Shown here piece after piece: positions 6,281 to 37,283 of a stretch of 39,664 bases of DNA. The notes below the pieces were generated by a model. That model did no database searches and was not told the origin of the DNA. It saw nothing but the letters and a program-made list of their open reading frames with translations. This stretch comes from Candidatus Collierbacteria bacterium. Its GTDB lineage: Bacteria > Patescibacteriota > Microgenomatia > UBA1400 > MFAQ01. Within the stretch, counting starts at the first letter, position 1; the number at the start of each line of letters is the position of its first letter. The stretch is from NCBI GenBank assembly GCA_903873735.1, contig CAIQPO010000094.1:1-39664 (forward strand), in the 5' to 3' direction. Both the position numbers and the translations under genes were made by a program.

Positions 6281-7528
6281 ATGCTTAAGAAATCAGTGTC
6301 TTGGTGGAGTGAAAATTCTTTTTGGACGAGAGTAGTGTTTACTTGTTTGATTTTGTTTTTTGTTTATTTGGGAGATGCTGTATTGTCGGACTGGGTGCCT
6401 GGATACATGCAGGAAAAGCTTGGGGGTTCAATGCTGATGGGACTCGTGATGTCGTTTAGTAGTTTGGTGGGATTTGGGGCTGATTTGGTATTTCCACAAT
6501 TACTAAAAGGAGCGTCATCAAAACGCTTGGTAATATTGGCAATTGGAACAAGCTTGGTATTTTCTGGGGTTCTCCTGTGGTCAATTGTGTGGCCAACTGT
6601 TTGGGTGTTTTTGATTGCTATGGCGGTGTGGGGTTTGTATTACGAATTTTTGGGATTCGGATCTTTTCAGTTTGTGTCGGAGAATGTACCTCCTCATGGA
6701 AGATCAGGAGTTTGGGCAATTTTTTCGGTATTCAAAAGTTTGGCATATTTTTTAGGCCCAATTTTGGGCAGTATGGTGGCCTTGAAGGTGAGCAACGAGG
6801 CAACGGTGTCTATGGCAGCGTTTTGGGTGATTTTAGGGTATGTGTTGTGGAAGTTTGCCAAAGCTAAGGGTAAGGTGGCTGCAAGTGAGGAGGCGAACGA
6901 AAAACTTAACTTGGTAGATGAGATAGAGCATTGGGTTGTGCTTTTTAAACATGTTTGGCCGATTTTGATTGTGAGTGTGACCATGGGTCTTATTGATGCA
7001 ACTTACTGGACAACCGGAACAGTGCTATCAGATAAACTGGCACTTCAAAATTGGTGGGGTGGAATGTTTTTGCCGCTTTACATGCTACCGCCGGTGTTTG
7101 TTGGATTCATAGTGGCTAGGTGGGGAATATATAAAGGAAAGAAGAAGATGGCAGAGAAGTTTATGCTTTTGGGAGGAATATTTCTGACCTTACTCGGAGT
7201 GAGTGATGCAACTTGGGTCTTGTTGTTGGCATCGTTTTTGACTGGCGCTTCTTTGTCGGTGGCTTGGCCTCTCACCGATGCGGTGTATTCTGATATTTTA
7301 GAAAGAATGGGAAGAGAGAGGAAACATTTGGTGGGATTGTCGAGTTCTACAATTTCGCTTGCTTACATTATTGGACCGATAATGGCAGGCTATATTGCTT
7401 CTTTGGTGGGTGAAAGGATGACTTTTGTGGTGATGGGTGGGGCCTGTGTGGTGATATCTTTGGTGCTTTTGGTAATAACGCCGAAAAAACTAAAACTACC
7501 TCAAAGGGAGATTAGAACTTGGAAGTAG
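6281..7528 (+). CDS. MFS-type transporter
   Basis: About 12 predicted hydrophobic helices split by a charged central loop (KAKGKVAASEEANEK), a typical MFS layout. Confidence 0.7.
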   Translation: MLKKSVSWWSENSFWTRVVFTCLILFFVYLGDAVLSDWVPGYMQEKLGGSMLMGLVMSFSSLVGFGADLVFPQLLKGASSKRLVILAIGTSLVFSGVLLWSIVWPTVWVFLIAMAVWGLYYEFLGFGSFQFVSENVPPHGRSGVWAIFSVFKSLAYFLGPILGSMVALKVSNEATVSMAAFWVILGYVLWKFAKAKGKVAASEEANEKLNLVDEIEHWVVLFKHVWPILIVSVTMGLIDATYWTTGTVLSDKLALQNWWGGMFLPLYMLPPVFVGFIVARWGIYKGKKKMAEKFMLLGGIFLTLLGVSDATWVLLLASFLTGASLSVAWPLTDAVYSDILERMGRERKHLVGLSSSTISLAYIIGPIMAGYIASLVGERMTFVVMGGACVVISLVLLVITPKKLKLPQREIRTWK

Positions 7529-7555
7529 AGAAAAAAATTAGTTTAGAATGGAGAT

Positions 7556-8107
7556 ATGAGAAATAAGATTATTTGGCATCAGGTGGTGCTGGTTGCGGTG
7601 ATGGTATTTTTAAGTGGATATAAATTTTTATTAGGGAGAATTGATTTAGATTTGGATACTTTGTGGTGGTGGTTGGGAAGTGTGGCTGGTTTTATATTTG
7701 TATTTTCTGACAGGATATTTTATGCATTGGTGACGAGGACTGATGAAAATATGTCGGTGGAATTAAGGGAAAATCTGAAGAAGGGTAAGGTGGGGATGGC
7801 GCTAAGTCAGCTAATTTCAGAGAGACATGAACAAAAGGAGCTCGTTATGAGAAGCGTGTTGTTTGTAATTTCTTGGTGGGTGCTGGCGCTATTTGCCTTT
7901 ACCAGCACAGCAAATATGTTTGCTAGGGGATTAATTTTAGGTATAGGGATTCACTTGGTGTTTGACCTGCTTGCTGATTACTGGTGGGATAGAGAAAGAT
8001 TGAATTTGTGGTTCTGGCAGATTAAGCGTGTGGTGCCAGAGTCAGAAAAACAAGTGTTTGTGGTGGTGTCTTTGGTGGTATTTTTGTTTATGGCTTTGTT
8101 CTTTTAG
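7556..8107 (+). CDS. Hypothetical membrane protein
   Basis: Four to five hydrophobic helices. No recognisable motif. Confidence 0.5.
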   Translation: MRNKIIWHQVVLVAVMVFLSGYKFLLGRIDLDLDTLWWWLGSVAGFIFVFSDRIFYALVTRTDENMSVELRENLKKGKVGMALSQLISERHEQKELVMRSVLFVISWWVLALFAFTSTANMFARGLILGIGIHLVFDLLADYWWDRERLNLWFWQIKRVVPESEKQVFVVVSLVVFLFMALFF

Positions 8108-8132
8108 TAGTTGACAGTAGAGAATATTTTGT

Positions 8133-8149
8133 ATACCATGAGGGGGTAT
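8133..8149. promoter_or_regulatory. Candidate CsoR-family operator, ATACC-ATGAGGG-GGTAT pseudo-palindrome with a G-tract
   Basis: ATACC (8133-8137) and GGTAT (8145-8149) are inverted. They are nested inside an outer inverted repeat, TTGACA (8111-8116) and TGTCAA (8150-8155). The element overlaps the predicted -10 position (TACCAT, 8134-8139), 17 nt after TTGACA. Confidence 0.45.
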
Positions 8150-8167
8150 TGTCAATTAATAATTTTA

Positions 8168-8395
8168 ATGACTAAAGAAGATAGAAAAAAGATACAGATC
8201 ATGCTAAAGCGCATTCAGGGACAGGTGGGTGGAATAGAACGCATGGTGTCGGAGGAAAAAGGGTGTGAGGCAGTAGTAACACAGATAACTGCAGCCATGA
8301 GTTCGCTCAGAAGTGTGGCTAGAACTTTACTGACGGATGCGGTTGATTCTTGTGATAGGGCGGAGTACGCTAAATTACTGAAAAGATTTTTATAA
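8168..8395 (+). CDS. CsoR/RcnR/CstR-family (DUF156) transcriptional repressor, two-Cys type
   Basis: LKRIQGQVGGIERMV...GCEAVVTQITAAMSSLRSVARTLL...DSC matches the family helix pattern. The track start at 8111 is TTG, so ATG 8168 (MTKEDRKK) is preferred. Confidence 0.8.
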   Translation: MTKEDRKKIQIMLKRIQGQVGGIERMVSEEKGCEAVVTQITAAMSSLRSVARTLLTDAVDSCDRAEYAKLLKRFL

Positions 8396-10668: not shown

Positions 10669-12339
10669 ATGGGTAAGCTTAGACAATTGATAACGCAAGC
10701 GATTTGCTCTTCAGCGGGAGTAGAGAATTTTACAGTGGAAAGAACTCAGGATTCAAGCAAGGGGGATTTGGCCACTAATGTGGCGATGGTGGGATATAAG
10801 AGCGCCGGTTTCTCATCTCCACGAGAGATGGCAGAGAGAGTGGTGGAAAGCTTGAGAGATAATTCTGAATTAGAGACAGTAATTAGTAAGATTGAAATTG
10901 CAGGACCTGGCTTTATAAACTTTTATTTGAAACAGGAATATGTTAAGAAAGTGTTGAGTGATGAATCTGCTGGGTGTGAGTTGATGAAAGGGAAACGAGT
11001 GTTGGTGGAGTATAGTTCGCCGAATATCGCAAAAAGGTTTTCGGTGGGTCACTTGAGATCAACAATTATTGGTAATTCCCTGGAAAGAATATTTAAAGCA
11101 ACGGGGGCTAGAGTGACGAATGATAATCACTTAGGTGATTGGGGAACACAGTTTGGAATGATAATCGCCGTAGTGGAGGAAAAAGACCTGGATGTGGAGA
11201 AGATGTCGGTGGCTGACTTGGAGAATGAATATGTGGAGTTTAACAAGAGGATGACTGAAACCCCCGGTCTTAGGGAGAAAGCAAAAGAAGCGTTTTGGAG
11301 ATTGGAAAAGGGAGACGCATCGGCTAGAAAGATTTGGGAGCAGTCTGTGGCGGTGTCAATGAGCGAGTTTGACAAGATTTACAAGAGATTGGGGGTGGAG
11401 TTTGAACATTCTTTGGGTGAAAGTGCTTATGAGACAGACATGCCTGCAATAATTAAAGAAGCAAAGAAAAATAAAGTTGCGGTAGAAGGAGAGAATGGCG
11501 CTTGGGTGGTGAAGTTTGAGAAAGATGGAAAGGAATATATGCCTCCGGCGATGTTAGTAAAATCTGATGGGACGACAACCTACTTTACGAGAGACTTAGC
11601 TACTATCAGAAGGAGACTGGATGAAGATGAGTTGAGGGCAGATTTGTATATATATGAGGTAGGTGGTGAGCAGAGATTACACCTTAGACAAGTGTTTGAA
11701 ACTGTAGAAAAATTGGGGTGGGCAAAAAAGGAAAGGTTTGTGCATGTAGCACATGGTCTCTTAACCTTGCCAGAGGGCAAGATGAGTACTAGAAAAGGGA
11801 ACACGATTAAATTGGAGGATTTGCTATGGAAATCAAAAGATGAAGCCAGGCGTGTGGCAGGGGTGGAGATTGCTGATGAAGAAATAGAGAAGTTGTCGCT
11901 TGCTAGTGTGAAGTACAACGAACTAAAACGCTCTCCGGGATTGGATTATGTGTTTGTGTGGGATGAGGCTTTGTCGATGGAGGGAAATAGTGCGCCATAT
12001 ATTAACTATGCTTATGTAAGAGCAAAGAAGATTGTAGCGGAGAAAAATATTGATGGTAAGAAACTAAGAGATTTTGAAGGAGAAGAAATTGGTCTTTCAA
12101 AAATGCTTATAGAGTTTGTGGAGGGAGATGTGGTTGAGCGAGCCGCAAAGACATATGCCCCGCAAGTGATTTGTAACTATTTATTTGAGCTGTCGAAGAA
12201 GTTTAATGCGTTTTATGATCACAATCGTGTACTGGGGGATGATCGAGAAAAGGAAAGGTTGTTTTTGGTGGCGAAGCTCGCAGAGGTGATAAAGCAAGGG
12301 GCTCTCTTGCTGGGGATTGATCTAGTAGAGAAGATGTAG
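10669..12339 (+). CDS. argS: Arginine--tRNA ligase
   Basis: SSPNIAKRFSVGHLRS (HIGH-type region), MSTRKG (KMSKS-type), C-terminal DALR anticodon-binding region. The track start at 10579 is TTG with a hydrophobic non-homologous extension, so ATG 10669 is preferred. Confidence 0.92.
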   Translation: MGKLRQLITQAICSSAGVENFTVERTQDSSKGDLATNVAMVGYKSAGFSSPREMAERVVESLRDNSELETVISKIEIAGPGFINFYLKQEYVKKVLSDESAGCELMKGKRVLVEYSSPNIAKRFSVGHLRSTIIGNSLERIFKATGARVTNDNHLGDWGTQFGMIIAVVEEKDLDVEKMSVADLENEYVEFNKRMTETPGLREKAKEAFWRLEKGDASARKIWEQSVAVSMSEFDKIYKRLGVEFEHSLGESAYETDMPAIIKEAKKNKVAVEGENGAWVVKFEKDGKEYMPPAMLVKSDGTTTYFTRDLATIRRRLDEDELRADLYIYEVGGEQRLHLRQVFETVEKLGWAKKERFVHVAHGLLTLPEGKMSTRKGNTIKLEDLLWKSKDEARRVAGVEIADEEIEKLSLASVKYNELKRSPGLDYVFVWDEALSMEGNSAPYINYAYVRAKKIVAEKNIDGKKLRDFEGEEIGLSKMLIEFVEGDVVERAAKTYAPQVICNYLFELSKKFNAFYDHNRVLGDDREKERLFLVAKLAEVIKQGALLLGIDLVEKM

Positions 12340-13834: not shown

Positions 13835-14410
13835 ATGAATGATAGTGATTTAATTGCGTCTAGGGAGTATAAGCAGATAGAGATTCCTGGGGTGGTAGTG
13901 GTGAGGTCGAGAAAATATTTTGGCGTGGAAGGTGGATGGCTTAGGGAGCAGTCGGATTTTTCTGAACTGACAAGTAATTTGGGCTACAGATTTGATGCTA
14001 GAGTGATGTATACGATTTGGTCTCCACCAGGAGTGATAAGAGGGGGGCATTTGGAGGGAAGATCAAAGACTGCGACGATAATTACCGGTGCTGCTTTTAT
14101 GGCACTGGTAGATATGAGACCTGGAGAGCAACAAGGAAAGGCGGTTGGGGTATATCTGGGGAATCATGATCGAGCTTGGGGAGACACAATGTTTATACCC
14201 GAAGGAGTGCTTAATGCATTTGTTCCTCTAAATAATGAGTGTCTTTACACAGGAGTGGGAGATAGGCCATTTAATAGATTTGATTCTCTTAGGGCTTTGG
14301 ATTTGTTTGATCCTGAATTAGGGTTAGAGTGGCCGGCTGGGACAAAACCTCAAGACAGTCACGAAGAGAAAGAAATACTTTCATTAAGAGAGTTTATTGA
14401 AAAACTTTAG
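13835..14410 (+). CDS. Divergent RmlC-like cupin (dTDP-4-dehydrorhamnose 3,5-epimerase family)
   Basis: IPGVVVV, GGWLRE, SPPGVIRGGH, SKTATIITGAAFMALVDMR, FIPEGVLNAF and DPELGLEWP follow the order of the RmlC motifs. Confidence 0.65.
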   Translation: MNDSDLIASREYKQIEIPGVVVVRSRKYFGVEGGWLREQSDFSELTSNLGYRFDARVMYTIWSPPGVIRGGHLEGRSKTATIITGAAFMALVDMRPGEQQGKAVGVYLGNHDRAWGDTMFIPEGVLNAFVPLNNECLYTGVGDRPFNRFDSLRALDLFDPELGLEWPAGTKPQDSHEEKEILSLREFIEKL

Positions 14411-14413
14411 TCT

Positions 14414-15427
14414 ATGAAGAATACTAATGAACAGGTTTTTTACGAAGTGGCAGAGATGCCTGAATCAAATAGATACTGGCTTAGAAGACAGTTTTGGGAT
14501 GCAGCTAGTGGGAAACAGAGATCGGTTACGGTGTCATTGGAGCTGCTTTTTCAGGGGGACTGGAGTTTGAGAATTGAAGAGAGGCGATCTTCGGTTTATT
14601 GGCAACTCTTAACTCTAAACATTGATGGAGAGGAGAGAGTGGTCTTTGAGAGATTTGTGAGAGGAAAGCGGGGAGTAAAAAATGACTATATTAGTTTGGG
14701 TTATTTACCGAGATGGGTAACCAAAGAGCTTGATTTGGTACTTGAAGAGATGAGAAGAAGAAAGATGGATGTTGGTGGAAGGAGGTTTTTAAAAGATGTA
14801 TTGCACAGGATAAAGAGGGATAGAAAAGAAATTAAGTCTAAGCTGACTGCAGTAGTGGAGAAGACGGGAATTGGGGGTCTTTTCAAAATTGTGTCACAAA
14901 CTCGTGGTGACGAGAGGGGTAGCTTTAGGGAGGTGGTGAGGTTTCCTGAGGTAGAACTCTTAACAGGCTATGATTTTATCGGTAAGCAGGTAAACCACTC
15001 ACACTCGATTTATGGAACTTTAAGAGGTTTGCATGTGGAGCCTTGGGCAAAGCTGGTGACGGTGATATCAGGACTAGCTGCTTGCGTGTTTTTGGATTGC
15101 AGACCAAACTCTAAAACATTTGGGAAGACTCAAACCATTTATTTGGGTTTTGGCAAAACACCTGATGGGGAAGAAGTTAAGGGCGGAGCAATATTCGTGG
15201 AACAGGGTATAGCTAATTCATTTATTGTGCTGTCGGATAAGCTTGATTATTCTTACGTGGTCGATGACTTATGGACTCCTGGGACAGCGACCTATGCGGT
15301 GAATCCAATGGATCCAAAGCTTGAAATTCCTTGGACTAGCTGGGTGGCTGAAGAAAAAATAATCAGATCAGATAGAGATATTGCGTCTCCTGGTTTCGAT
15401 GAGTTTGTGAAGTCGCTAAGTAAATAG
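14414..15427 (+). CDS. RmlC-like sugar-nucleotide epimerase cupin with an N-terminal extension of about 150 aa and unknown function
   Basis: The C-terminal 190 aa contain GDERGSFREV, QVNHSHSIYGTLRGLHVEPWAKLV, FLDCRPNSKTFGK, VEQGIANSF and DYSYVVDDLW. Confidence 0.75.
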   Translation: MKNTNEQVFYEVAEMPESNRYWLRRQFWDAASGKQRSVTVSLELLFQGDWSLRIEERRSSVYWQLLTLNIDGEERVVFERFVRGKRGVKNDYISLGYLPRWVTKELDLVLEEMRRRKMDVGGRRFLKDVLHRIKRDRKEIKSKLTAVVEKTGIGGLFKIVSQTRGDERGSFREVVRFPEVELLTGYDFIGKQVNHSHSIYGTLRGLHVEPWAKLVTVISGLAACVFLDCRPNSKTFGKTQTIYLGFGKTPDGEEVKGGAIFVEQGIANSFIVLSDKLDYSYVVDDLWTPGTATYAVNPMDPKLEIPWTSWVAEEKIIRSDRDIASPGFDEFVKSLSK

Positions 15428-25425: not shown

Positions 25426-26528
25426 AAATTAAATCCGCCAAGATTTATCACATAGTGCTACCGATGAAGTTTGCTTTTGTGACTGGTTTTGGGGAGATAA
25501 AGGAAAGAGATGCGGTGCTCGTACGGCTTGAGACCAGTGATGGGGTTGTCTGTTGGGGAGAGAGTGCAGCCTTGGCGGCACCGCTTTATCTGGAGGAGAC
25601 GGTCCAGACTTGTATTCACATACTTAAAGATTTTTTATTGCCGAGGCTAAAGGAAAGAGATATTTCTCCGGAAGAATTTGCCCAAGAGATTGGTTTTATT
25701 AGAGGTAATAACTTAGCAAAACATGGAGTAGAGACTGCACTTTGGTCGATTAAATCAGAGATGGAGGGAAAATCTGTATCTCATCTGCTTGGAGGGGTGA
25801 GAGAGGGGGTACCGGTGGGTGAGAGTGTGGGGATGACTGAGACTGTGGAGCAACTGCTTGCTATTGTGCAAAAAAGGCTGGATGAGGGATATCAGAGGAT
25901 TAAGCTGAAGATCAAGCCAGGACATGACTTTGATTATGTGAAGTCGGTAAGGGATGCATTCCCTAAGATACAAATCATGGTGGATGGCAACTCGTCGTAT
26001 AAGCTGTCGCAGATTGATGATTTGAAGAGATTGGACGAGCTGGATTTGCTTATGATGGAACAGCCACTTGGGTATGACGATATTGTGGATCACGCTAAAC
26101 TTCAAAAAGAAATTAGAACACCAATCTGTTTGGATGAAAGTATCATCCACGCTGAAGATGCTAGAAAGGCCATTGAACTAGGCGCTTGTAAGGTAATCAA
26201 CGTTAAACCCGGGAGAGTGGGAGGGTTGGTGGAGTCAAAAAAGATTAATGAGCTGGCGAAGAAACATGGGATTAGACTGTGGTGTGGAGGCATGCTGGAG
26301 ACAGGAATTGGAAAGGCTTACAACCTGGCAGTGGCCTCCTTGTCGGAGTTTTCGTTGCCTGCCGACATTGTGCCTACAACTACCTTTTTTAATGAAGATG
26401 TGACTGTGCCAGATTTGGTGGTAAGCAACAAGGGAGAGATTGAGGTTCCTAAGACTGCAGGATTAGGATTTGAGGTACGCGAGGATAAGGTACAGAAGTA
26501 TTTGAGGGGTGAATGGACAGTGTTTTAA
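25422..26528 (+). CDS. Enolase-superfamily MLE-subgroup enzyme, o-succinylbenzoate synthase / N-acylamino-acid racemase family
   Basis: All catalytic positions are visible: KxK (RIKLKIKPG), metal ligands D (MVDGNSSY), E (MMEQPL) and D (CLDESI), and the second-face Lys (INVKPGRVGG). Confidence 0.85.
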   Translation: MKIKSAKIYHIVLPMKFAFVTGFGEIKERDAVLVRLETSDGVVCWGESAALAAPLYLEETVQTCIHILKDFLLPRLKERDISPEEFAQEIGFIRGNNLAKHGVETALWSIKSEMEGKSVSHLLGGVREGVPVGESVGMTETVEQLLAIVQKRLDEGYQRIKLKIKPGHDFDYVKSVRDAFPKIQIMVDGNSSYKLSQIDDLKRLDELDLLMMEQPLGYDDIVDHAKLQKEIRTPICLDESIIHAEDARKAIELGACKVINVKPGRVGGLVESKKINELAKKHGIRLWCGGMLETGIGKAYNLAVASLSEFSLPADIVPTTTFFNEDVTVPDLVVSNKGEIEVPKTAGLGFEVREDKVQKYLRGEWTVF

Positions 26529-26640
26529 GGTTGTGATATATTGTCTGTAATGGTGAACGTTTTATCTTTTAGCTTCTTTTTTAGCTTCCCTAACCGGGGA
26601 GGCTCTAGGCTGTAGCTAAAAGTAAACACAAGCCAGAGGA

Positions 26641-26662
26641 CCTCCCTAGGGGAGGTTTTTTT
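26641..26662 (+). terminator. Intrinsic terminator after the four-gene cassette
   Basis: CCTCCC-TAG-GGGAGG followed by T7. Confidence 0.8.
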
Positions 26663-26674
26663 GTTATCAATTTT

Positions 26675-26917
26675 ATGAAAAAAATGGAAAAAAGAACGCA
26701 AGAAGCAGTAGGGGTATTAGAAAAAATTGGTTGGGAGATGATGGTAGTAGATGATGGGGGGGTGAGAATGGCGGAAGAAGGTGAGGTGGGGGTTGTGGCT
26801 CAACTGGCTGGAGCTGGTAGAGATTTAGGAGCTTCGTGGCAAGAAATTGAGGTAGCCCTGGAGAAGATAGGGATAAAACTAAGAGAGGTAAAAAAAGAGG
26901 AAGGATCTGTGATCTGA
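26675..26917 (+). CDS. Hypothetical small acidic protein (80 aa)
   Basis: ORF with host-typical composition, between a terminator and the RSH gene. No motif recognised. Confidence 0.4.
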   Translation: MKKMEKRTQEAVGVLEKIGWEMMVVDDGGVRMAEEGEVGVVAQLAGAGRDLGASWQEIEVALEKIGIKLREVKKEEGSVI

Positions 26918-26959
26918 CTTGAAGACTGTGCCACCTAGGGGATAGAATTAGGCCAATCG

Positions 26960-28836: not shown

Positions 28837-29838
28837 GTGAAGGCAGATGTGCCACTCGGTTTGCACACTACTTTGGGAATTGGAGGGAAGGCAGATTTGT
28901 TTTATGAAGCAAGAGATAGTTTGGAGCTCGTTAAGGCGGTGAGACTTTCTAAGAGTTTGGGAATTCCTGTAACAATAATTGGCGGTGGAAGTAATATATT
29001 GGTCGGTGATAAAGGTGTCAGGGGACTGGTGGTAAAGAATGTTGGTGGAGTAATTAAAATTGGGAAGGACAAAGAGCCAATCGGAGCACTTCCTGAAGAG
29101 GTGGGAGCGAGATGGCAGGCTGACTCAACAGTGGGAAGTTTTAAATATGATTTTGCTGATTTGGATTATGATGAGTGGGACGAGAAACGAGTGGAGGTGG
29201 TAGTTGATTCGGGTGTGCCACTATCGGTACTGATGATGAGTATGGCTGACGCGGGAGTTACTGGATTGCAATGGTATTCAAGGATTCCGGGGACAGTGGG
29301 CGGGGCAATTTTTAATAATATTCACGGAGGGACTCATACGATAGGTGAGGTGGTAGAAGGTGTGAAGCTCATTGACAGAAATGGGGAAATTCGAGAAATA
29401 TCAAGTGAGGCTTTGGGTATGGGTTATGATGTGTCTCGATTCCACAATTCCGGTGAGATCATTTTAGAGGTAAAGTTTAACCTGTTTAGGGGTGATGTAG
29501 ATAAAAGTAGATGGGTGATTGGAGAGTGGGCTAAAAGAAAATCAATTCAGCCTGGTAGATCTGCTGGATGTGTATTCAAAAATATTGCCGATGCCGATAA
29601 GGAGAGACTGGGTCTGCCGACTGGTTCGGTGGGTTATTTGGTTGAACATGTTTTGAAGTTGAGTGGATTTCGGGTGGGGGACGCTGCCGTGTCTGATGCC
29701 CATAAAAACTTTATAGTAAATGTGGGATCAGCGACTGCCTCTGACTTTGTGGGGGTAAGGAATGAGATTGTGATGAGGGCGAAGGAAAAGTGCGGTATTG
29801 ACTTAGAGTCAGAGATTATTTTGATGGGAGAGTTTTAG
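28837..29838 (+). CDS. murB: UDP-N-acetylenolpyruvoylglucosamine reductase
   Basis: HTTLGIGGKADLF, IGGGSNILV, GTVGGAIFNNIHGG, and SAGCVFKN motifs. GTG start. Confidence 0.9.
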   Translation: MKADVPLGLHTTLGIGGKADLFYEARDSLELVKAVRLSKSLGIPVTIIGGGSNILVGDKGVRGLVVKNVGGVIKIGKDKEPIGALPEEVGARWQADSTVGSFKYDFADLDYDEWDEKRVEVVVDSGVPLSVLMMSMADAGVTGLQWYSRIPGTVGGAIFNNIHGGTHTIGEVVEGVKLIDRNGEIREISSEALGMGYDVSRFHNSGEIILEVKFNLFRGDVDKSRWVIGEWAKRKSIQPGRSAGCVFKNIADADKERLGLPTGSVGYLVEHVLKLSGFRVGDAAVSDAHKNFIVNVGSATASDFVGVRNEIVMRAKEKCGIDLESEIILMGEF

Positions 29839-30938
29839 ATAATTTCTCTTTCAACCCTCTCTGAAATTGAAGTGAAAATTTCGTATGGGGTGGTGCCAAG
29901 TATTTGACTGATTGAGTAAATTGAGCTGGGGCTGGTAGTATCATCGCTGATAAGACAGACAGGTTGGTAGAGTTTTGGAACTGGAGATGTTTGGGATATA
30001 TCAAGGGAAATCTGATCCATTGAAACTCGTCCAATTACCGGGCAAAGATGTTTTCCAATAAGAGCGTGTGGCCAAGGATTTGGTCCTCGGCGTAAACCAT
30101 CAGCATACCCTCCAGCAATGGTGGCACACAACAAATCTTTCTTGGCTTTATATGTGAGGTTGTAGCCAATACTTTCCCCTGACTTGAGGGTGTGGATTCT
30201 GGAAATTTCGGTGGTAAGAGACATGGTTGGCATAAGCCCGAAGTCGATGCCATCTTCTTGGAAAGGATTGATACCGTGAAGAGCTAATCCTGGGCGAACC
30301 ATGTCCAGATGTGTCTCCGGGTGTTTGAGAATAGCAGCTGAATTTGCTGCATGAAGGACTACATGTGGGTAGATGGATTTAACTTGTTGGGTAAGTTTTG
30401 AAAAGAGATCAAATTGGATGTGGGTGTAATTTGAGTTGATCATGTCCGCGTCGGCAAAGTGGGTAAATATTCCAACTAGATTTATATGACCTTGTTTTGG
30501 AAGAAGAGATAATATTTCTTGAAATTCTTGAGCGGTGGCGCCGGTTCGGTGCATGCCAGTATCAACCTTAATGTGAATATTGGCCTTGGTTTGGATTTTT
30601 GAGGCGATGTTGTTTAGAGAGAGAAGGTCTTTTGGATTGGTGATGGTGAGAGAAATATTTTCCTTAATGGCTTGAGGAAAAAGGTGGGGGTTTATTGGGC
30701 TTAAGATGAGAATTTCAGGAGAAGCTGAAATTTGGCGAAGATTAAGAGCCTCGTTTAGTCTGGCGACACCAAAATGACTAATACCTTCTTTGAGGTAGAA
30801 ATCACAGAGGTGGCGGGCTCCATGTCCGTAGGCGTTGGCCTTGAGGATAGCCATAATGCGTGTGTTTGGCTTTAGATGTTTGCGAACGATATTTAAGTTG
30901 TGGTGGAGGCGGGATGATGAAATAGTAGCCTTGATCAT
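29835..30938 (-). CDS. alr: Alanine racemase
   Basis: AILKANAYGHG (PLP lysine), IHIKVDTGMHRTG, GYADG, and RVSMDQ. Its stop codon overlaps the murB stop (TTAG). Confidence 0.92.
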   Translation of the reverse strand: MIKATISSSRLHHNLNIVRKHLKPNTRIMAILKANAYGHGARHLCDFYLKEGISHFGVARLNEALNLRQISASPEILILSPINPHLFPQAIKENISLTITNPKDLLSLNNIASKIQTKANIHIKVDTGMHRTGATAQEFQEILSLLPKQGHINLVGIFTHFADADMINSNYTHIQFDLFSKLTQQVKSIYPHVVLHAANSAAILKHPETHLDMVRPGLALHGINPFQEDGIDFGLMPTMSLTTEISRIHTLKSGESIGYNLTYKAKKDLLCATIAGGYADGLRRGPNPWPHALIGKHLCPVIGRVSMDQISLDISQTSPVPKLYQPVCLISDDTTSPSSIYSISQILGTTPYEIFTSISERVEREII

Positions 30939-30983
30939 AAGGAGTAAAAATATTGATAACGGGCTAGGTTATAATTATAAGAT

Positions 30984-32444
30984 ATGGTGTTGACAAAAGT
31001 ACTTTTTGGTTTTGGTTTTGAGGTGGATAGTGAGCTTGAGATTACTGGAATCCAGGCTGACTCAAGAAAGATAAAGAGGGGAAATATCTTTGTGGCGTAT
31101 AAGGGAGTGGAGGTAGATGGACATGATTTCATTGATCAAGCAATTGAAAAGGGAGCGGTGGCGATAGTGGGAGAGGCTGCAGGATTGAGGTTTTCGGTAC
31201 CTTATTTTCGAGTTGATAATGGTAGGTTAGCATGGGCTAGGATGATTTCAAATTGGTATGGTAATCCGGAGAAGCTGATGAAGTTTATTGGTGTGACGGG
31301 TACTGATGGAAAGACTACCACCTGTAATTTGATTTACCATTTTTTGAAGGCAGATGGCAAGAAGGTGGGTATGGTGTCAACGGTGTTTGCCTTGGTAGAT
31401 GGAGAAATGATGGAAACTGGGCTACATACTAGTTCACCTGACCCTGATGATTTGTGGAAGATATTAGCGATTATGGCAAGTAAGCGATGTGAGTATGTGG
31501 TGCTTGAGACAACTTCACATGGTTTGGATCAAGACAGATTTGGAAATATTGAGTTTGAGGTGGGAGTGCTGACGAATTTGGCGAGTGATCATTTGGAGTA
31601 TCACAAGACAATAGATGAGTATGCTAAAGCCAAGGCAAAACTAATGAATAAGTCACGGATATCAGTAATTAATAAGCAAGTAGAGAAACTAAGCTTATTT
31701 GTAAGGTCGGCTTTGGATAGAGTAGTGTATTACGATCGAAAAAGTGAGGTAAGAAAGGAAAAATACATTGATACTGGAGAGAAAGTAGTACAGAGTTTTG
31801 AAGTGATGATTTACGGAGATTGGTATGAGCTGAAGTCAGATCTACTGGGTGACTATAATCAAGAAAATATCCTGGCAGCAATGAGAACAGCATTGAGTTT
31901 GGGGGTAGATATCAGAGTAATTAGAGAATCATTGGTGGTGCTTCCACAGCTACCTGGCAGGTTTGAGATGATAAAGAACAAAAGAGGTATGAAAGTAGTA
32001 GTGGATTTTGCGCATACAGAACAGGGAATGAGGGGAGTGTTGACAATGATAAGAGAAAAATTGATGCAGGAAGGTGAACAGATGGTGGTGTGTTTTGGAT
32101 GTAATGGAGAGAGGGATAGAAGTAAGAGAGCGCCGATGGGGAGAGTGGCTTGTGGCTTGGCTGACAGAGTGGTGGTGACTTCAGAAGATCCAAGAAATGA
32201 ACCGGTAGAACAGATTTTTAAGGATATTTATAAAGGCTGTTTGATGGGTGGGGGTGAACTGGGAAAGAATGTATACAGAGAAGATGATAGAAAAAAAGCA
32301 CTCCAGATTAGTATCAGGAAATTGGCAAAGAAGGGAGATTGGGTAGTGTTTTTGGGTAAGGGACATGAAAAAAGCATGAATATCGGAGGGGTGGAGAAAC
32401 CTTGGGACGAAAAGGGAGAAGTGGAGAAGATATTAAATAGATAA
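30984..32444 (+). CDS. murE: UDP-N-acetylmuramoyl-L-alanyl-D-glutamate--2,6-diaminopimelate ligase (probably DAP-type)
   Basis: GVTGTDGKTTT P-loop, a Mur ligase central domain, and TSEDPRNE in place of the DNPR motif with Arg retained. Confidence 0.88.
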   Translation: MVLTKVLFGFGFEVDSELEITGIQADSRKIKRGNIFVAYKGVEVDGHDFIDQAIEKGAVAIVGEAAGLRFSVPYFRVDNGRLAWARMISNWYGNPEKLMKFIGVTGTDGKTTTCNLIYHFLKADGKKVGMVSTVFALVDGEMMETGLHTSSPDPDDLWKILAIMASKRCEYVVLETTSHGLDQDRFGNIEFEVGVLTNLASDHLEYHKTIDEYAKAKAKLMNKSRISVINKQVEKLSLFVRSALDRVVYYDRKSEVRKEKYIDTGEKVVQSFEVMIYGDWYELKSDLLGDYNQENILAAMRTALSLGVDIRVIRESLVVLPQLPGRFEMIKNKRGMKVVVDFAHTEQGMRGVLTMIREKLMQEGEQMVVCFGCNGERDRSKRAPMGRVACGLADRVVVTSEDPRNEPVEQIFKDIYKGCLMGGGELGKNVYREDDRKKALQISIRKLAKKGDWVVFLGKGHEKSMNIGGVEKPWDEKGEVEKILNR

Positions 32445-32463: not shown

Positions 32464-33795
32464 ATGCAAGAAGTAATTAGAGTAACTGGAGGAGTAAAAC
32501 TTAGAGGTGAGGTAAGGCCAATACCAAATAAGAATTCGATTGTGGCAGCTTTGCCTGCGGCTTTGCTTTCAGAAATGCCGGTAGTTTTTAAAGAAACACC
32601 GAACACGAGTGACGTGGCAAAGATTTTGGAGCTGATGCGTTTAATGGGGGCTGAAGTAGAGGCTGATGGTAAGGGCGAAGTGAAGGTTTGCTGTAAGAAT
32701 CTTAATACTTATAAAGTGGATGAAAAGATTGGTGGTCAGTTTAGGGGATCGCTAATGTTTGTTGGTCCACTTCTTGCCCGTTTTGGTAAGGCAGAAGTGC
32801 CGATGCCTGGAGGGTGCGAACTGGGAATGAGGTCGATTGAAGCTCACGTGGATGTGTTTGAGAAGGTGGGGGTAAAGGTGGAGAGGGTAGGAGCAATGGT
32901 GAGGTTTACTGCTCCAAGGAAACTTGAAAAAAGGTATAAAGTGTGGCAGATTGAAGCCTCGGTGACCGCGACTGAAAATTTTGCAATATATGCTGCTGGA
33001 GTAGAGGCTGAGTTTGAACTAATAGATGCTGCTTCGGAGCCTCATGTGACAGATGTGCTGAACTTATTGTCGGACATGGGTGCAAAGATTTCAGGTGTTG
33101 GTTCTAACCATCTGATTATTGGCGGAGTGAAGAAGCACAAACAGGCAATATTTACTCCAAGACCTGATTTTATTGATATTTGTGGATTGATTGTGGCAGC
33201 GGCAGTAACTGATGGAAAGATAAAAATTTTGGGGGCAAATATTCCTGATATTGTGGATGGACTTATCAATTGGTATGAGATGTTTAATGTGAAGATTGAT
33301 AGGATAGGAAAAGACCTGGTGGTATCGGTAGGTAAGGGTGGTCTGGAAGTGGATGTGCGAAAGCAAGGATTCCCTTTGGCTGGAGCAAATTTACCCAAGC
33401 TTTACCCTAGACCATGGCCAGGGTTTCCGGTGGATGCAATACCCCCAATGGCGGTGCTTGCCAGCAAATCTAGAGGAAGATTGCTACTCATGAACTGGAT
33501 GTATGAGAGTGGTTTGGATTTCGTGAGGGAGATGAACCAGATGGGAGCGGATATTTTGATGATGGACCCGGCGAAAATTATCATTAATGGACCGGTGAAG
33601 TTTAAGGGTGGAAACGTGACTACGCCAAGTGTAATTCAAGCGTGTAAGGCAATTTTCTTGGCAGCCTTAGCGGATAAGGCGGTAACAACAATTGCTGGCG
33701 TAGAAATACTGAAGAGAAGATATCCAAGTGTGATTGAAACATATACAAAACTTGGCGCAAAGATTGAAGAGGTGATATCATCTGGGAAATTATGA
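32464..33795 (+). CDS. murA: UDP-N-acetylglucosamine 1-carboxyvinyltransferase
   Basis: PNKNSIVAALPAA, catalytic Cys loop PGGCELGMRSI, and the inside-out alpha/beta barrel repeat pattern. Confidence 0.92.
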   Translation: MQEVIRVTGGVKLRGEVRPIPNKNSIVAALPAALLSEMPVVFKETPNTSDVAKILELMRLMGAEVEADGKGEVKVCCKNLNTYKVDEKIGGQFRGSLMFVGPLLARFGKAEVPMPGGCELGMRSIEAHVDVFEKVGVKVERVGAMVRFTAPRKLEKRYKVWQIEASVTATENFAIYAAGVEAEFELIDAASEPHVTDVLNLLSDMGAKISGVGSNHLIIGGVKKHKQAIFTPRPDFIDICGLIVAAAVTDGKIKILGANIPDIVDGLINWYEMFNVKIDRIGKDLVVSVGKGGLEVDVRKQGFPLAGANLPKLYPRPWPGFPVDAIPPMAVLASKSRGRLLLMNWMYESGLDFVREMNQMGADILMMDPAKIIINGPVKFKGGNVTTPSVIQACKAIFLAALADKAVTTIAGVEILKRRYPSVIETYTKLGAKIEEVISSGKL

Positions 33796-34124
33796 TTGAA
33801 GCCCCAAATTGGTGTAGAGGATGCGAAACAAATTGTTGTGATCATTTTGTGTTGTCTAATTGGCCTAAGTGGAAGATTGATGAGCTGAAGGAAAAATATC
33901 CATTTTTGTCGGTATATGAACAGTGGGTGGGTGAGAACGAGAGGGGTGATGAAGAAACGGCTTGGGTGATGGAGTGCGCAAGACTTATGGAAGATGGTGC
34001 TTGTAGGGATTATCCTGATGATAGGCCATATTTTTGTGATTGGGCGGGAGTAAGATATCCTCCAGTGACCGGCTGTAAACTGTTTGAAAAGAAGGTGAAA
34101 AATAATCCTGACAGATGTGAGTAG
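33792..34124 (+). CDS. Cys-rich YkgJ/UPF0153-like putative zinc- or iron-chelating protein
   Basis: N-terminal CRGCETNCC (CxxCxxxCC) plus three further Cys. Start overlaps the murA stop by ATGA. Confidence 0.6.
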   Translation: MIEAPNWCRGCETNCCDHFVLSNWPKWKIDELKEKYPFLSVYEQWVGENERGDEETAWVMECARLMEDGACRDYPDDRPYFCDWAGVRYPPVTGCKLFEKKVKNNPDRCE

Positions 34125-34139: not shown

Positions 34140-35306
34140 ATGGTGAGTATGAAAGAGACTGTAGCAGTGCTTTACGGAGGAGTTAGTCCAGAGCATGAGG
34201 TGGCGATAATCTCGGCGGTTCAAGCAATGAATGCGCTTAAAGGTGAGGGATATACAGTGGTGCCTGTGTATATTAGTAAAGAAGGAGAATGGTATTTGGG
34301 AGATGATAAATTTTTGAACCCTACTTTTTATCAAGATTTGAATAAGGTGAAGAAGGCAGGGAAGATGGTACTCTTACCAGCAAATCGTAATTTGAATCTT
34401 CTTATCAGTAGTTGGTTGGGATTTGGGCCTTATGAGAAGAATATTGATGTGTTTTTTCCAATTTTTCATGGAGCGAATGGAGAGGATGGAACGATACAGG
34501 GATTATTGGAGATGGCCAACCTGCCTTATGTGGGAGGTGGAGTGCTCGAGGGGTCTTCAGGAATGGATAAGTTTGTGACAAAGAGAATTGCAGAGAGTTT
34601 GGGGGTGAGAGTGGCTGGTGATAGATTGGTGGTTAAGGGAATGTGGAGTAAAGAGAAGCTGGCGCTACTTAAAAGAGATTTGAAATACCCGGTGTTTGTA
34701 AAACCAGCAACTCTGGGGTCGAGTATTGGGATTTCCAGGGTAGAGAGATCAGGTGATTTAGATAATGCTCTGGAAGTGGCTTTTTGCTATGACGAAAGAG
34801 TGTTGGTGGAAGATGCGGTGGACATGGAGACGGAAGTAAACATATCAGTGCTGGGTAATGGACCGTATGAGGTGAGCGTAACTGAACAGCCAGTGGCTAG
34901 TAGTAAGGTACTATCTTTTGAGGATAAATATATTTCTTCGGCAGGGAAGCAGCAGGGGATGGCGAGCGCTAAGCGAGTGATACCGGCAAATATTTCTAGT
35001 AAGCAGCTAAAAACAATTGAAGACTGGGCTAGGCAGATATTTTGGGCAATGGGTGGAAGAGGCTTGGCAAGAGTAGACTTTATGATTGATAAGAAGGGTG
35101 AGATTTATTTTAATGAGATAAATACAATCCCTGGGTCACTGGCCTTTTATTTATGGGAGCGAAGTGGTTATCCATTTCCCAAGCTGGTAAGCAAGTTGGT
35201 GGAATTGGCGCTCGAGTCTTGGAAGCGGAAACAGCAAAGAGTGACGGTGTTTGAAAGTAATATTTTGTCTGGACTGGGTAGATTGGGAGTAAAGGGAAAA
35301 GCTTAG
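34140..35306 (+). CDS. ddl: D-alanine--D-alanine ligase
   Basis: N-terminal VAVLYGGVSPEHEVAIISA, HGANGEDGTIQGLLE, an ATP-grasp core (PVFVKPATLGSSIGI), and FNEINTIPG. Confidence 0.92.
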   Translation: MVSMKETVAVLYGGVSPEHEVAIISAVQAMNALKGEGYTVVPVYISKEGEWYLGDDKFLNPTFYQDLNKVKKAGKMVLLPANRNLNLLISSWLGFGPYEKNIDVFFPIFHGANGEDGTIQGLLEMANLPYVGGGVLEGSSGMDKFVTKRIAESLGVRVAGDRLVVKGMWSKEKLALLKRDLKYPVFVKPATLGSSIGISRVERSGDLDNALEVAFCYDERVLVEDAVDMETEVNISVLGNGPYEVSVTEQPVASSKVLSFEDKYISSAGKQQGMASAKRVIPANISSKQLKTIEDWARQIFWAMGGRGLARVDFMIDKKGEIYFNEINTIPGSLAFYLWERSGYPFPKLVSKLVELALESWKRKQQRVTVFESNILSGLGRLGVKGKA

Positions 35307-35307
35307 T

Positions 35308-35336
35308 TTGACAGAGGAAGTCTATTGTCCTATAAT
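35308..35336 (+). promoter_or_regulatory. Consensus sigma70-type promoter, TTGACA-17 nt-TATAAT
   Basis: TTGACA at 35308-35313, an exactly 17-nt spacer, and TATAAT at 35331-35336. Confidence 0.75.
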
Positions 35337-35369
35337 ACTGACAAGATCTTTAATATGGAGGAGGATGCT

Positions 35370-35861
35370 ATGGCCGTTCGAGATATTCTCACAGTGATGG
35401 CTGACCAGATTCGGTGGCTGCGTGATCCTGATGAGCAGAAAGCCTATATGGCGGGAATGCTTACCGGTGTGCGGGTAGCCAAGGTGTTGGTGCTGCAGCG
35501 CATTGCCGGCAAGTTTGGTCCTAGTCTTTATGGTTTTGCCAGCAGGACTTACATGGGACCGTTGCGTCAGGGTGGTATGAGTGTCGTGGAGTTTATTCAG
35601 GGCGCAAATATCGGCACGGATGGTGTGGTGTCGCTCACGGAGGAGATGTTTTCTTGCCCGGAGATGATGCAAGACCGGCGCCTGTCACAGATATTTCAGA
35701 GGGGGTTTGAAAATGGAGTCGATGTGATTTACATTGACGGCTGCAAACACTTTCTGGAAGGATACGCTTATCCATCAAGACAAGAGGCTGAAGAGAAAGT
35801 CAAGGAATGGATGAGTGATATGGAAGTGGTTGTGACTGCGAAGATGGCTTCACTTCAATGA
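35370..35861 (+). CDS. Hypothetical protein (163 aa), compositionally foreign
   Basis: GGAGGAGGA (35357-35365) lies 4 nt before ATG 35370. An alternative start is ATG 35355, and the track start at 35325 is TTG. Sampled lines are 55-60% GC. Arg codons are mostly CGN. No recognisable motif. Confidence 0.65.
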   Translation: MAVRDILTVMADQIRWLRDPDEQKAYMAGMLTGVRVAKVLVLQRIAGKFGPSLYGFASRTYMGPLRQGGMSVVEFIQGANIGTDGVVSLTEEMFSCPEMMQDRRLSQIFQRGFENGVDVIYIDGCKHFLEGYAYPSRQEAEEKVKEWMSDMEVVVTAKMASLQ

Positions 35862-35869
35862 ATTCGTTT

Positions 35870-35892
35870 GCCGCCCTAGAGGCGGCTTTTTT
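35870..35892 (+). terminator. Intrinsic terminator of the GC-rich cassette
   Basis: GCCGCC-CTAGA-GGCGGC followed by T6. Confidence 0.8.
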
Positions 35893-35897
35893 GTGCG

Positions 35898-37283
35898 TTA
35901 AAAAGTATCAGGAAGATCGTTTTCTAAGAGAATCCAGTCGTATGACTCTGCAAGCTCATGAATAATTGGCCAGAGGTTGGTGTTGTTTGGGATATGGGTG
36001 GAATTTTTTCCGCCGAGCCCTATTTGTAGATTTTTGGTGCGCTCGGATTCGCCTACCAAAATTATTTTTTCGAAAATTTTACTAGCTTTTTCCCCTATTT
36101 CTTGATGAACTGTAGCAGTTTTGTCTCCTAGCTCAATGATGCCTGGGGTGATAAGTGCCTTTTTGCCAGGGATGTCAGATAGATCGTCTAAAATGCGATG
36201 AAAACCAGTTTCGTTTGAACTAAATGAGTTATCGATGAGGGTGCAGTTTCCAATTTTTTTTAACTCAAGTCGATGTGGGGCTGGGGTAATGGAGGAGACT
36301 GCCTTTTTGATAGTGGTGATGGGGAGCTTTAGCATGAGGCTCATGGAGATTGCCGCTGTTAGATTTTCAAGGTTTGAAGTGCCGAAAAGTGGTGAGGTAA
36401 AAGAGTAGTGATTATTTTTGTAGGAAATTGTGAAAGTTGTTCCTGAAGGTTTGAGAGTGTAATGGGAGACACGGAAGTCTGCTTTTGGGTCGTGGAGCGA
36501 GTAGGTTTTGATGTTCTTGTATTTGGCTTGCGAGAAGGTGTTTTTTATGTAGGGATTGTCGAGATTGACGAGGCAGTTTTCTTTGTTGGGGTTTGAATCG
36601 ATGATTTCGAACTTGGCTAGGGTAGTGTTTTCTAAGGTTTTGAAACGCTCGAGATGTTGGGTACCTATGGCAGTAAGAATAGAGAATTGAGGTGGAGTCA
36701 TGAAGCATAGTTCTTTTATCTCTCCCCTTTTGTATGCTCCCATTTCAGAGATAAAGAAGTGGTGTTTGGAGAGGAGCTCAAGCTTTACTACTTTGGCAAT
36801 TCCAAAGATAGTGTTGTAACTTTGAGGAGTTTTTAGGGTGAGAGTGTAACTCGCGAGAATTTGGTAGAGATAGTCTTTGACACTAGTTTTGCCAAAAGAT
36901 CCGGTAATTCCGATGGTTTTTAGGTGGGGATGAGAGAGGAGTGTTTGTCTGGTGGTATTAATTGTGTGACGGCGATTGATGGCTTCGTATGGCCAGAGAA
37001 GAAAAAGGGAAGCTATAAGAAAAGGAGGGGGGAGCAATAGAAGAAGAAACCCTGGGATTAAGGTATTGAAGAAGTTGGGTAACAAGATTATCGATTGAAT
37101 TAAGGCAAGGGTGAGTGAGAGAAAGATGATTTTTTTGACTTTGGAAGTGTAGACTAAAGGTTTTTTGTGACTAATCTGATATTTGAAGGGGTGAGTCACC
37201 CACCAGGAAAGGAACCTTCCTGGCTCGTAACCTTCTTGTTGGAGAATGGTGAGGTGGGTGATAAGGAGGGAAAAAATATTCAT
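35898..37283 (-). CDS. murF: UDP-N-acetylmuramoyl-tripeptide--D-alanyl-D-alanine ligase with an N-terminal membrane-like extension
   Basis: GITGSFGKTSVK P-loop, a Mur ligase central domain (TAIGTQHLE) and C-terminal domain (PHRLE). The first 100 aa or so are hydrophobic. Confidence 0.85.
   Translation of the reverse strand: MNIFSLLITHLTILQQEGYEPGRFLSWWVTHPFKYQISHKKPLVYTSKVKKIIFLSLTLALIQSIILLPNFFNTLIPGFLLLLLPPPFLIASLFLLWPYEAINRRHTINTTRQTLLSHPHLKTIGITGSFGKTSVKDYLYQILASYTLTLKTPQSYNTIFGIAKVVKLELLSKHHFFISEMGAYKRGEIKELCFMTPPQFSILTAIGTQHLERFKTLENTTLAKFEIIDSNPNKENCLVNLDNPYIKNTFSQAKYKNIKTYSLHDPKADFRVSHYTLKPSGTTFTISYKNNHYSFTSPLFGTSNLENLTAAISMSLMLKLPITTIKKAVSSITPAPHRLELKKIGNCTLIDNSFSSNETGFHRILDDLSDIPGKKALITPGIIELGDKTATVHQEIGEKASKIFEKIILVGESERTKNLQIGLGGKNSTHIPNNTNLWPIIHELAESYDWILLENDLPDTF

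Follow-up and report, generated by a model that had tools for sequence, protein, structure and literature searches.

The stretch of DNA that we analyzed (39,664 bp; hereafter, the window) is from a Collierbacteria-related CPR bacterium of the order UBA1400. According to Pfam, it is housekeeping chromosome on both sides of the locus of interest. It encodes DNA ligase, Pth, thioredoxin, thioredoxin reductase, and tRNA synthetases (Arg-, Lys/Asp-type, Thr-, and His-), as well as RelA/SpoT, MurB, Alr, MurE, MurA, Ddl, MurF, and an alpha/beta hydrolase. Between the convergent ddl and murF genes lies a compact cassette with a single gene:

34140..35306, + strand: ddl (D-Ala-D-Ala ligase), the left flank; Pfam Dala_Dala_lig_N and Dala_Dala_lig_C; stop codon TAG at 35304-35306
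35307..35897, + strand: putative inserted block of 591 nt, 49.4% GC; fills the exact interval from the ddl stop to the murF stop
35308..35336, + strand: sigma-70-type promoter, TTGACA-17 nt-TATAAT (12/12); begins one base past the ddl stop
35357..35365, + strand: Shine-Dalgarno sequence GGAGGAGGA, 4 nt 5' of the ATG at 35370
35370..35861, + strand: CDS for a 163-aa protein, predicted to be soluble and all-helical, from a very small uncharacterized family
35870..35892, + strand: intrinsic terminator; stem GCCGCC/GGCGGC (35870-35886), closed by a 5-nt loop and followed by T6; 5 nt separate it from the murF stop
35898..37283, - strand: murF-type Mur ligase, the right flank; Pfam Mur_ligase_M and Mur_ligase_C; its stop reads TTA on the + strand (35898-35900)

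The host can be recognized in two ways. First, the best matches of ddl are to MAGs of Collierbacteria (64-70% identity). Second, one strand is rich in G regardless of gene direction: the + strand of the window has 11639 G and 5225 C (29.3% vs 13.2%; GC skew +0.38), and G exceeds C in all 500-nt bins, whichever way the genes point, while A and T are about equal. Genes on the - strand of the window are C-rich, with third-position skews of -0.54 to -0.66; the + strand genes other than the cassette have third-position GC skews of +0.44 to +0.74. The relatives share this skew (0.29 in L172 and 0.38 in L175; the L numbers are our labels for loci). The same G/C strand disparity is described in PMC7143001 for members of the order UBA1400, namely Ca. 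Chazhemtobacterium aquaticus Ch65, Collierbacteria, and Beckwithbacteria. The skew of Ch65 is 0.33, and the value for our window is at least as extreme. The extreme G-over-C bias of the window is thus already known for the lineage. We also considered a bisulfite-type or other conversion artefact as the source of the skew, and we rejected it because A and T are about equal and because the skew of the lineage is published (PMC7143001).

The skew also bears on how these genomes are annotated. The ENA gene calls for window positions 35898-37283 (L001/L002) omit murF, which lies on the C-rich strand, and place spurious + strand ORFs of 35, 57, and 44 aa there instead. Similarly, the hydrolase gene of L176 is displaced by ORF calls of 52 and 43 aa. 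The extreme skew seems to degrade the automatic annotation of minority-strand genes in this lineage. Two other features of the window may be mentioned here. At 13835-15427 (+ strand), two neighboring genes both match the dTDP-4-dehydrorhamnose 3,5-epimerase (cupin) domain, and the second of these (337 aa) has an extra ~150 aa at its N terminus that lack a Pfam match. Upstream of the RelA/SpoT-like gene is an ORF-free gap of 432 nt (26529-26959) that matches no Rfam family; it contains promoter-like sequences at 26514-26542 (10/12, with an extended TG) and 26919-26948 (9/12).

The initial annotation of this DNA, which was made from the sequence alone, described a self-contained and compositionally foreign single-gene unit, with a perfect promoter, a ribosome binding site of a kind that almost no other gene in the window has, and a strong terminator. 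All three expression signals are as described. The promoter is the only TTGACA-17-TATAAT site in the 39,664-bp window with up to one mismatch (by pattern search), it is the only 12/12 site that a promoter scan found within 25-39.6 kb, and no exact match arose in 100 dinucleotide-preserving shuffles. We compared 35 genes for pairing with the anti-Shine-Dalgarno sequence at the 3' end of the 16S rRNA. The duplex with GGAGGAGGA (-12.1 kcal/mol) is the strongest of the 35, the median is -2.5 kcal/mol, and just one other gene reaches -8 kcal/mol or below. The 8-mer GGAGGAGG is not rare on the G-rich strand (2 found vs 3.5 expected), so it is the position before the ATG that counts, and not the octamer itself. 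The terminator folds at -12.3 kcal/mol with six G-C pairs, and it outranks every other terminator-like site in 25-39.6 kb. Downstream of ddl there is no terminator, and transcripts that continue past this gene may raise the expression of the cassette.

We place the start of the protein at the ATG at 35370, and not at the upstream TTG (35325), which is inside the promoter, because the alignment of the homologs (described below) begins at an N-terminal MA(L/V)xD. Within the ORF, GC content by codon position follows GC1>GC3>GC2, as expected of coding sequence. We also asked if this GC-rich promoter-terminator unit could be a non-coding RNA; this was ruled out by the lack of any match to Rfam covariance models in the window, by the protein homologs, and by the codon-position pattern.

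The initial annotation had raised the concern that the join might be chimeric. The exact 163-aa protein is encoded on five contigs. In the ENA assemblies ERZ18644181 and ERZ27313374, the Cys-rich ORF upstream of ddl, ddl, the cassette, and murF are arranged as in the window, and over ~3.3 kb both differ from it by one mismatch, at 36170, which is outside the cassette. Because independent assemblies, from different pipelines and different samples, give the same join, the join is not an assembly artefact, and chimerism can be set aside. More broadly, we consider it extremely improbable that the cassette results from chimeric assembly or contamination, or that a non-coding element was misread as an ORF. 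The abrupt shift in composition at both borders of the cassette would fit an artefact, and so would the unusable AlphaFold2 model that we obtained from the single sequence (pLDDT just 36.7). But besides the agreement between assemblies, full-length protein homologs exist, Rfam had no match, and tblastn found no plasmid or vector match to the cassette. Also, the C-termini encoded by the two flanking genes are normal: Ddl is intact (...GVKGKA*), with the same final residues as in relatives, and the convergent MurF is intact (...ENDLPDTF*) and has the same end as in relatives.

We then compared the ddl/murF junction across related genomes. The wider synteny that the relatives share is RelA/SpoT, murB, murA, and ddl, followed by the convergent murF and alpha/beta hydrolase genes. 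In L172-174 (70% ddl identity), L175/176 (68%), and L177/178 (67%), the stop codons of ddl and murF overlap or lie directly next to each other. The more distant L085-L088, L102, and L140 (47-56%) have the same arrangement, with gaps of 0-20 nt. At the junction, L172 reads gcTTAGaaagtatc; the window reads gcTTAG, then the 591 nt, and then TTAaaaagtatc. Given this arrangement in the closest relatives, the comparison indicates that the 591-bp block (35307-35897) is a lineage-specific insertion into the overlapping stop codons of ddl and murF. The claim that the cassette interrupts a coherent ddl/murF neighborhood thus holds up: the junction is conserved, and none of the relatives that we examined has the cassette at the syntenic position.

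The borders of the block are plain. We searched for transposon-like borders and rejected that candidate: no direct or inverted repeats of at least 9 nt flank the cassette, and the sole repeat is the trinucleotide TTA at both borders (35303-35305 and 35898-35900). This TTA might represent a tiny target-site duplication, or a microhomology used in recombination, although both stop codons need TTA anyway. There are no tRNA genes and no mobility genes (integrase) at the cassette.

In other relatives, the same slot is occupied by other genes. L003 (Collierbacteria RIFOXYD1_FULL_40_9) and L089 have a homolog of VanX-type D-Ala-D-Ala dipeptidases there (PDB 1r44, E = 2.7e-11; in L003, it is at 11164-11826 on the - strand), and L083 and L084 have murB there (7203-8180 on the + strand of L083). 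Because either of these genes can occupy the slot, the convergent ddl/murF junction is a recurrent site of lineage-specific gene insertion. The cassette shares that site with the dipeptidase and with murB, but those are recognizable peptidoglycan enzymes, and the cassette protein is unrelated to either of them or to any known family.

Other parts of the peptidoglycan cluster vary as well. The slot between murA and ddl holds, in the window, an ORF at 33792-34124 (+ strand) that had been labeled ykgJ. We do not retain this label, as the ORF encodes a Cys-rich protein of 110 aa without a Pfam match (E<=0.01) or a PDB sequence match. This slot is empty in L172, and in L175 it holds a Peptidase_C39_2 protein. 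The window also has alr (- strand) and murE between murB and murA (29835-32444). L172, the closest relative locus, has murA immediately after murB; in L175, murA comes immediately after RelA/SpoT, and murB is absent from the gene calls. In the lineage of the window, the peptidoglycan cluster has been rearranged or expanded.

The 163-aa product had been described as acidic; it is, but only mildly so (pI 5.25, with 21 D/E vs 18 K/R). It has no transmembrane segment (the maximum KD19 is 1.19) and no signal-like N-terminus. It had also been said to match no family. This is correct for the curated libraries: neither the cassette protein nor any of the 8 family members that we eventually identified has a match in Pfam, NCBIfam, PHROGs, or PADLOC (including the defence models of PADLOC-DB 2.0, at E<=1), and PDB sequence and profile searches with the family found no match. 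A word-indexed search of 5.8 billion proteins returned only the protein itself; with the family alignment as the query, it returned the protein itself and three known homologs. But exhaustive comparison with phmmer (HMMER) to 1.84 billion representatives, clustered at 50% identity, identified seven remote homologs of 158-368 aa. These are alignable over the full length, with identities of 25-40% and E values from 4.6e-30 to 1.7e-4. The family thus comprises about 8 clusters among the 1.84 billion representatives.

In the 8-sequence alignment, the invariant residues are A25, G29, G33, A57, F75, P97, G124, and W147. All of these are structural, and they include an AxxxGxxxG helix-packing motif. 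There is no invariant polar or catalytic-type residue, which is why we think that the cassette protein is probably not an enzyme. AlphaFold2, given only the 8-sequence alignment, yielded a confident all-alpha model (pLDDT 93.1, pTM 0.89) with three long helices (20-45, 103-129, and 137-162) and several short ones; the confidence came only with this alignment. Foldseek found no meaningful neighbor of the model in the PDB or in BFVD (best E = 1.4, TM <0.4). So the structure prediction and Foldseek comparison that the initial annotation had suggested gave a helical fold without a neighbor in either database. We conclude that the cassette encodes a real, selected gene product of a very rare family, cytosolic and predicted to be all-helical. 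The family is uncharacterized, and, going by the model, the fold is possibly new.

The neighborhoods of the homologs are all different. (We refer to family members by P numbers.) P0007 adjoins MazG and a full-length, cellular-type DnaG primase. P0008 adjoins a DUF1801 protein and a GH43 enzyme. The gene for P0010 (L165) overlaps the end of a DUF2130 gene, to which it is translationally coupled, and lies upstream of a HAD hydrolase gene; the DUF2130 family is also found in the Collierbacteria locus L003. P0003, which is the closest homolog, is upstream of ORFs of 393 aa and 93 aa without a known family, and P0004 is downstream of several small ORFs without Pfam matches. P0006 (L171, 752-1858) is fused to a Cys-rich C-terminal domain of ~220 aa with a CxxCxxCxxC...CxHH cluster; this extension has no relationship to the gene that follows P0003. 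All-against-all BLASTP identified no neighbor family that is common to the homolog loci, and none of the neighbors had a PDB match. We therefore abandoned guilt by association: there is no common neighbor, and the only functions from Pfam or PHROGs are MazG, DnaG, HAD, DUF2130, DUF1801, and GH43. Several of the homologs also appear to be stand-alone units, with strong Shine-Dalgarno sites and flanking hairpins. The gene for P0003 looks leaderless, as a TTGCAA-17-TATACT promoter (L166, 145-184) ends 8 nt before the ATG.

Because the cassette sits inside a cluster of mur, ddl, and alr genes, it might encode a cell-wall accessory factor that was recruited to D-Ala-D-Ala metabolism. The presence of a D-Ala-D-Ala dipeptidase homolog in the same slot in L003 and L089, or of murB in L083 and L084, agrees with this idea. 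We think it very unlikely nevertheless: none of the seven homologs is near peptidoglycan genes, the protein has no signal peptide, transmembrane segment, or conserved residues of a catalytic type, and a convergent junction is simply permissive for insertion.

The initial annotation called the cassette "moron-like." Phage morons, as known from lambdoid phages, are extra single genes that have their own promoter and terminator and that lie between conserved phage genes. The cassette resembles them in being one gene with its own strong promoter and intrinsic terminator, with a composition unlike that of its neighbors, between two unrelated genes that are adjacent in relatives. Accordingly, the cassette might be the last surviving piece of DNA that was delivered by a phage of CPR bacteria, or it might be a phage gene for anti-defence or superinfection exclusion. 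The run of small ORFs lacking Pfam matches on the contig of P0004 might also be taken to hint at a phage. But morons lie in phages or prophages, and the cassette is in a bacterial housekeeping chromosome. Furthermore, we found no phage relative and no phage context for any family member. PHROGs had no match. No hit at E<=1 came from a tblastn search of 50,697 phage records, scans of IMG/VR with P0001, P0003, P0004, P0005, and P0008 found no relative on a viral contig, and the Foldseek search of BFVD was empty. There is no phage hallmark among the neighbors of the homologs; even the DnaG beside P0007 is a full-length primase of the cellular type. A phage moron or a prophage remnant is thus an unlikely explanation, if somewhat less so than recruitment to the cell wall. 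With housekeeping surroundings, and without relatives in the phage, plasmid, or viral-contig collections, "moron-like" is apt only as an analogy.

The composition of the cassette sets it apart from the rest of the window. The GC content of the ORF is 50.6%, and the 34 other genes range from 37.5 to 45.9% (z = 4.0). Its GC3 is 0.543, as compared to 0.32-0.48. In a sliding 492-nt profile of the entire window, the global maximum of GC is on the cassette ORF. The synonymous-codon log-odds of the ORF, relative to the pooled + strand genes, have z = -4.9. Thus, no gene in the window is more extreme in composition than the cassette ORF, and both its composition and its codon usage are outside the gene-to-gene spread of the host. 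The two 60-nt lines (35401-35520) that had been singled out as GC-rich are indeed 55% and 60% GC, and only 2.9% of the lines of the window reach 55%. The claim about arginine codons is half right. CGN does account for 8 of the 11 arginine codons of the cassette, but the preference of the neighbors for AGA/AGG is limited to + strand genes. Because the entire window is strand-skewed (GC skew +0.38), - strand genes are CGN-rich for arginine (7/10 in murF and 10/14 in alr).

Four-fold degenerate sites bear on when the gene arrived. In the + strand genes of the host, these sites are A.32, C.08, G.30, and T.29. In the cassette, they are A.16, C.22, G.33, and T.29. In most of the homologs, C is.27-.37 and G is.11-.32. 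Given C of.22, G of.33, and a third-position GC skew of +0.37, the cassette is far from the four-fold equilibrium of the host yet already enriched in G. Because its third-position skew is already so high, either the cassette is not very recent or the donor was similarly skewed. As for the donor, the homolog genes, P0010 excepted, are 47-58% GC (6 of the 7 loci with DNA), much like the cassette, and their surroundings have a similar GC content, so a donor of ~47-50% GC is plausible; with the closest homolog just 40% identical, the donor cannot be named.

Had the gene been ancestral to the clade and repeatedly lost from relatives, then its deviant composition would have to reflect its amino-acid content or its expression level. 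P0010 lends this scenario some appeal: its gene is in a strongly G-skewed genome, matches its host fully in composition (four-fold C 8%), and is coupled to a gene from the DUF2130 family, which also occurs in Collierbacteria (L003). The skew of the cassette is partly host-like as well. However, in over 10 relatives, at several depths, the stops of ddl and murF overlap or abut without any remnant. Four-fold sites, which are independent of amino acids, are off the equilibrium of the host (C 22% vs 8% and A 16% vs 32%), and the homologs are not syntenic. We judge an ancestral gene to be improbable, a little more so than a phage origin.

Instead, acquisition by the lineage of the window seems to postdate the split from the relatives with 70% ddl identity. 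These are the nearest relatives available for dating, so the time of the insertion is poorly bounded, and "recently acquired," as the initial annotation put it, is accurate only loosely. The gene did arrive after that split, but its skew (+0.37) is already well towards that of the host, and the cassette is fixed in all of the sampled contigs (5 of 5 contigs with the exact ddl carry the insert).

Together, these observations make it highly likely that the 591-bp block is an insertion of foreign DNA that carries an autonomous and complete monocistronic gene unit. Its own expression signals, along with its outlying GC content and codon usage, bear out the earlier description of a self-contained foreign unit. 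We infer that the gene came by horizontal transfer, via illegitimate or microhomology-mediated recombination. In the scenario that we propose, a foreign 591-bp segment would have entered the overlapping stops of the convergent ddl and murF genes. Transcription would start ~7 nt past the -10 box, near 35343, and would give a leader of ~26 nt whose near-perfect Shine-Dalgarno sequence should lead to high translation of the 163-aa protein. The hairpin and T6 would end the RNA 5 nt before murF and would thereby insulate murF from antisense transcription. The protein itself may act stoichiometrically by binding a partner, as do orphan immunity proteins, antitoxins, anti-defence proteins, or inhibitors.

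This last step is tentative. We favor, though with low confidence, a protein that binds and inhibits a partner in stoichiometric amounts (as an antitoxin, an orphan immunity protein, or an anti-defence factor would) over an enzyme, because no polar residue is invariant, the expression is predicted to be high, the distribution is sporadic, and there is no fixed partner gene. As a functional analogy only, the cassette protein is like orphan immunity proteins and antitoxin-type inhibitors in being small, cytosolic, helical, and mildly acidic (as predicted), in lacking conserved catalytic residues, in being sporadic, and in its predicted high expression. It is unlike them in having no adjacent or conserved partner and no match to a Pfam immunity family or to PADLOC, so we do not claim membership. 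The roles that the initial annotation offered (an immunity, anti-defence, or host-interaction factor) are likewise no more than possibilities, and the protein fits no defence-system model. (When we looked for a conserved adjacent partner, as in toxin-antitoxin or toxin-immunity pairs, we found none, and the cassette is monocistronic.)

Among known kinds of loci, the cassette is closest to a genomic islet with an ORFan accessory gene. Like these, it is lineage-specific at a conserved junction, has deviant GC content and codon usage, and is sporadically distributed. Unlike them, it has unusually clean and complete signals, and it inserted exactly at overlapping stop codons. Also, two of the three marks of an islet are present (absence from the syntenic site in relatives and deviant composition), but the cassette has no mobility gene, no tRNA, and no repeat beyond the TTA. 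As a phenomenon, ORFan islets in bacterial chromosomes are ordinary, and this case is genuine and neatly bounded.

Without a function, the cassette gene stays one more orphan accessory gene. It is nevertheless a clean case, with well-defined borders, of a reduced CPR genome gaining a gene horizontally, by an insertion that split two overlapping stop codons. The half-converted third positions, under the published bias of the host, make an unusual internal clock for amelioration. And a tiny family with a confident helical model but no neighbor in the PDB or BFVD is a reasonable target for structural genomics. More speculatively, and with still less confidence than we have in an inhibitor role for the cassette protein, the gene might be the founding member of a new fold and family that moves as a single-gene unit among CPR and other uncultured bacteria, and whose members are stoichiometric inhibitors. 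If so, then such a family would provide immunity against the toxins of competitors or of the host, or would supply anti-defence or anti-toxin factors, and either activity would be relevant to an episymbiotic lifestyle.
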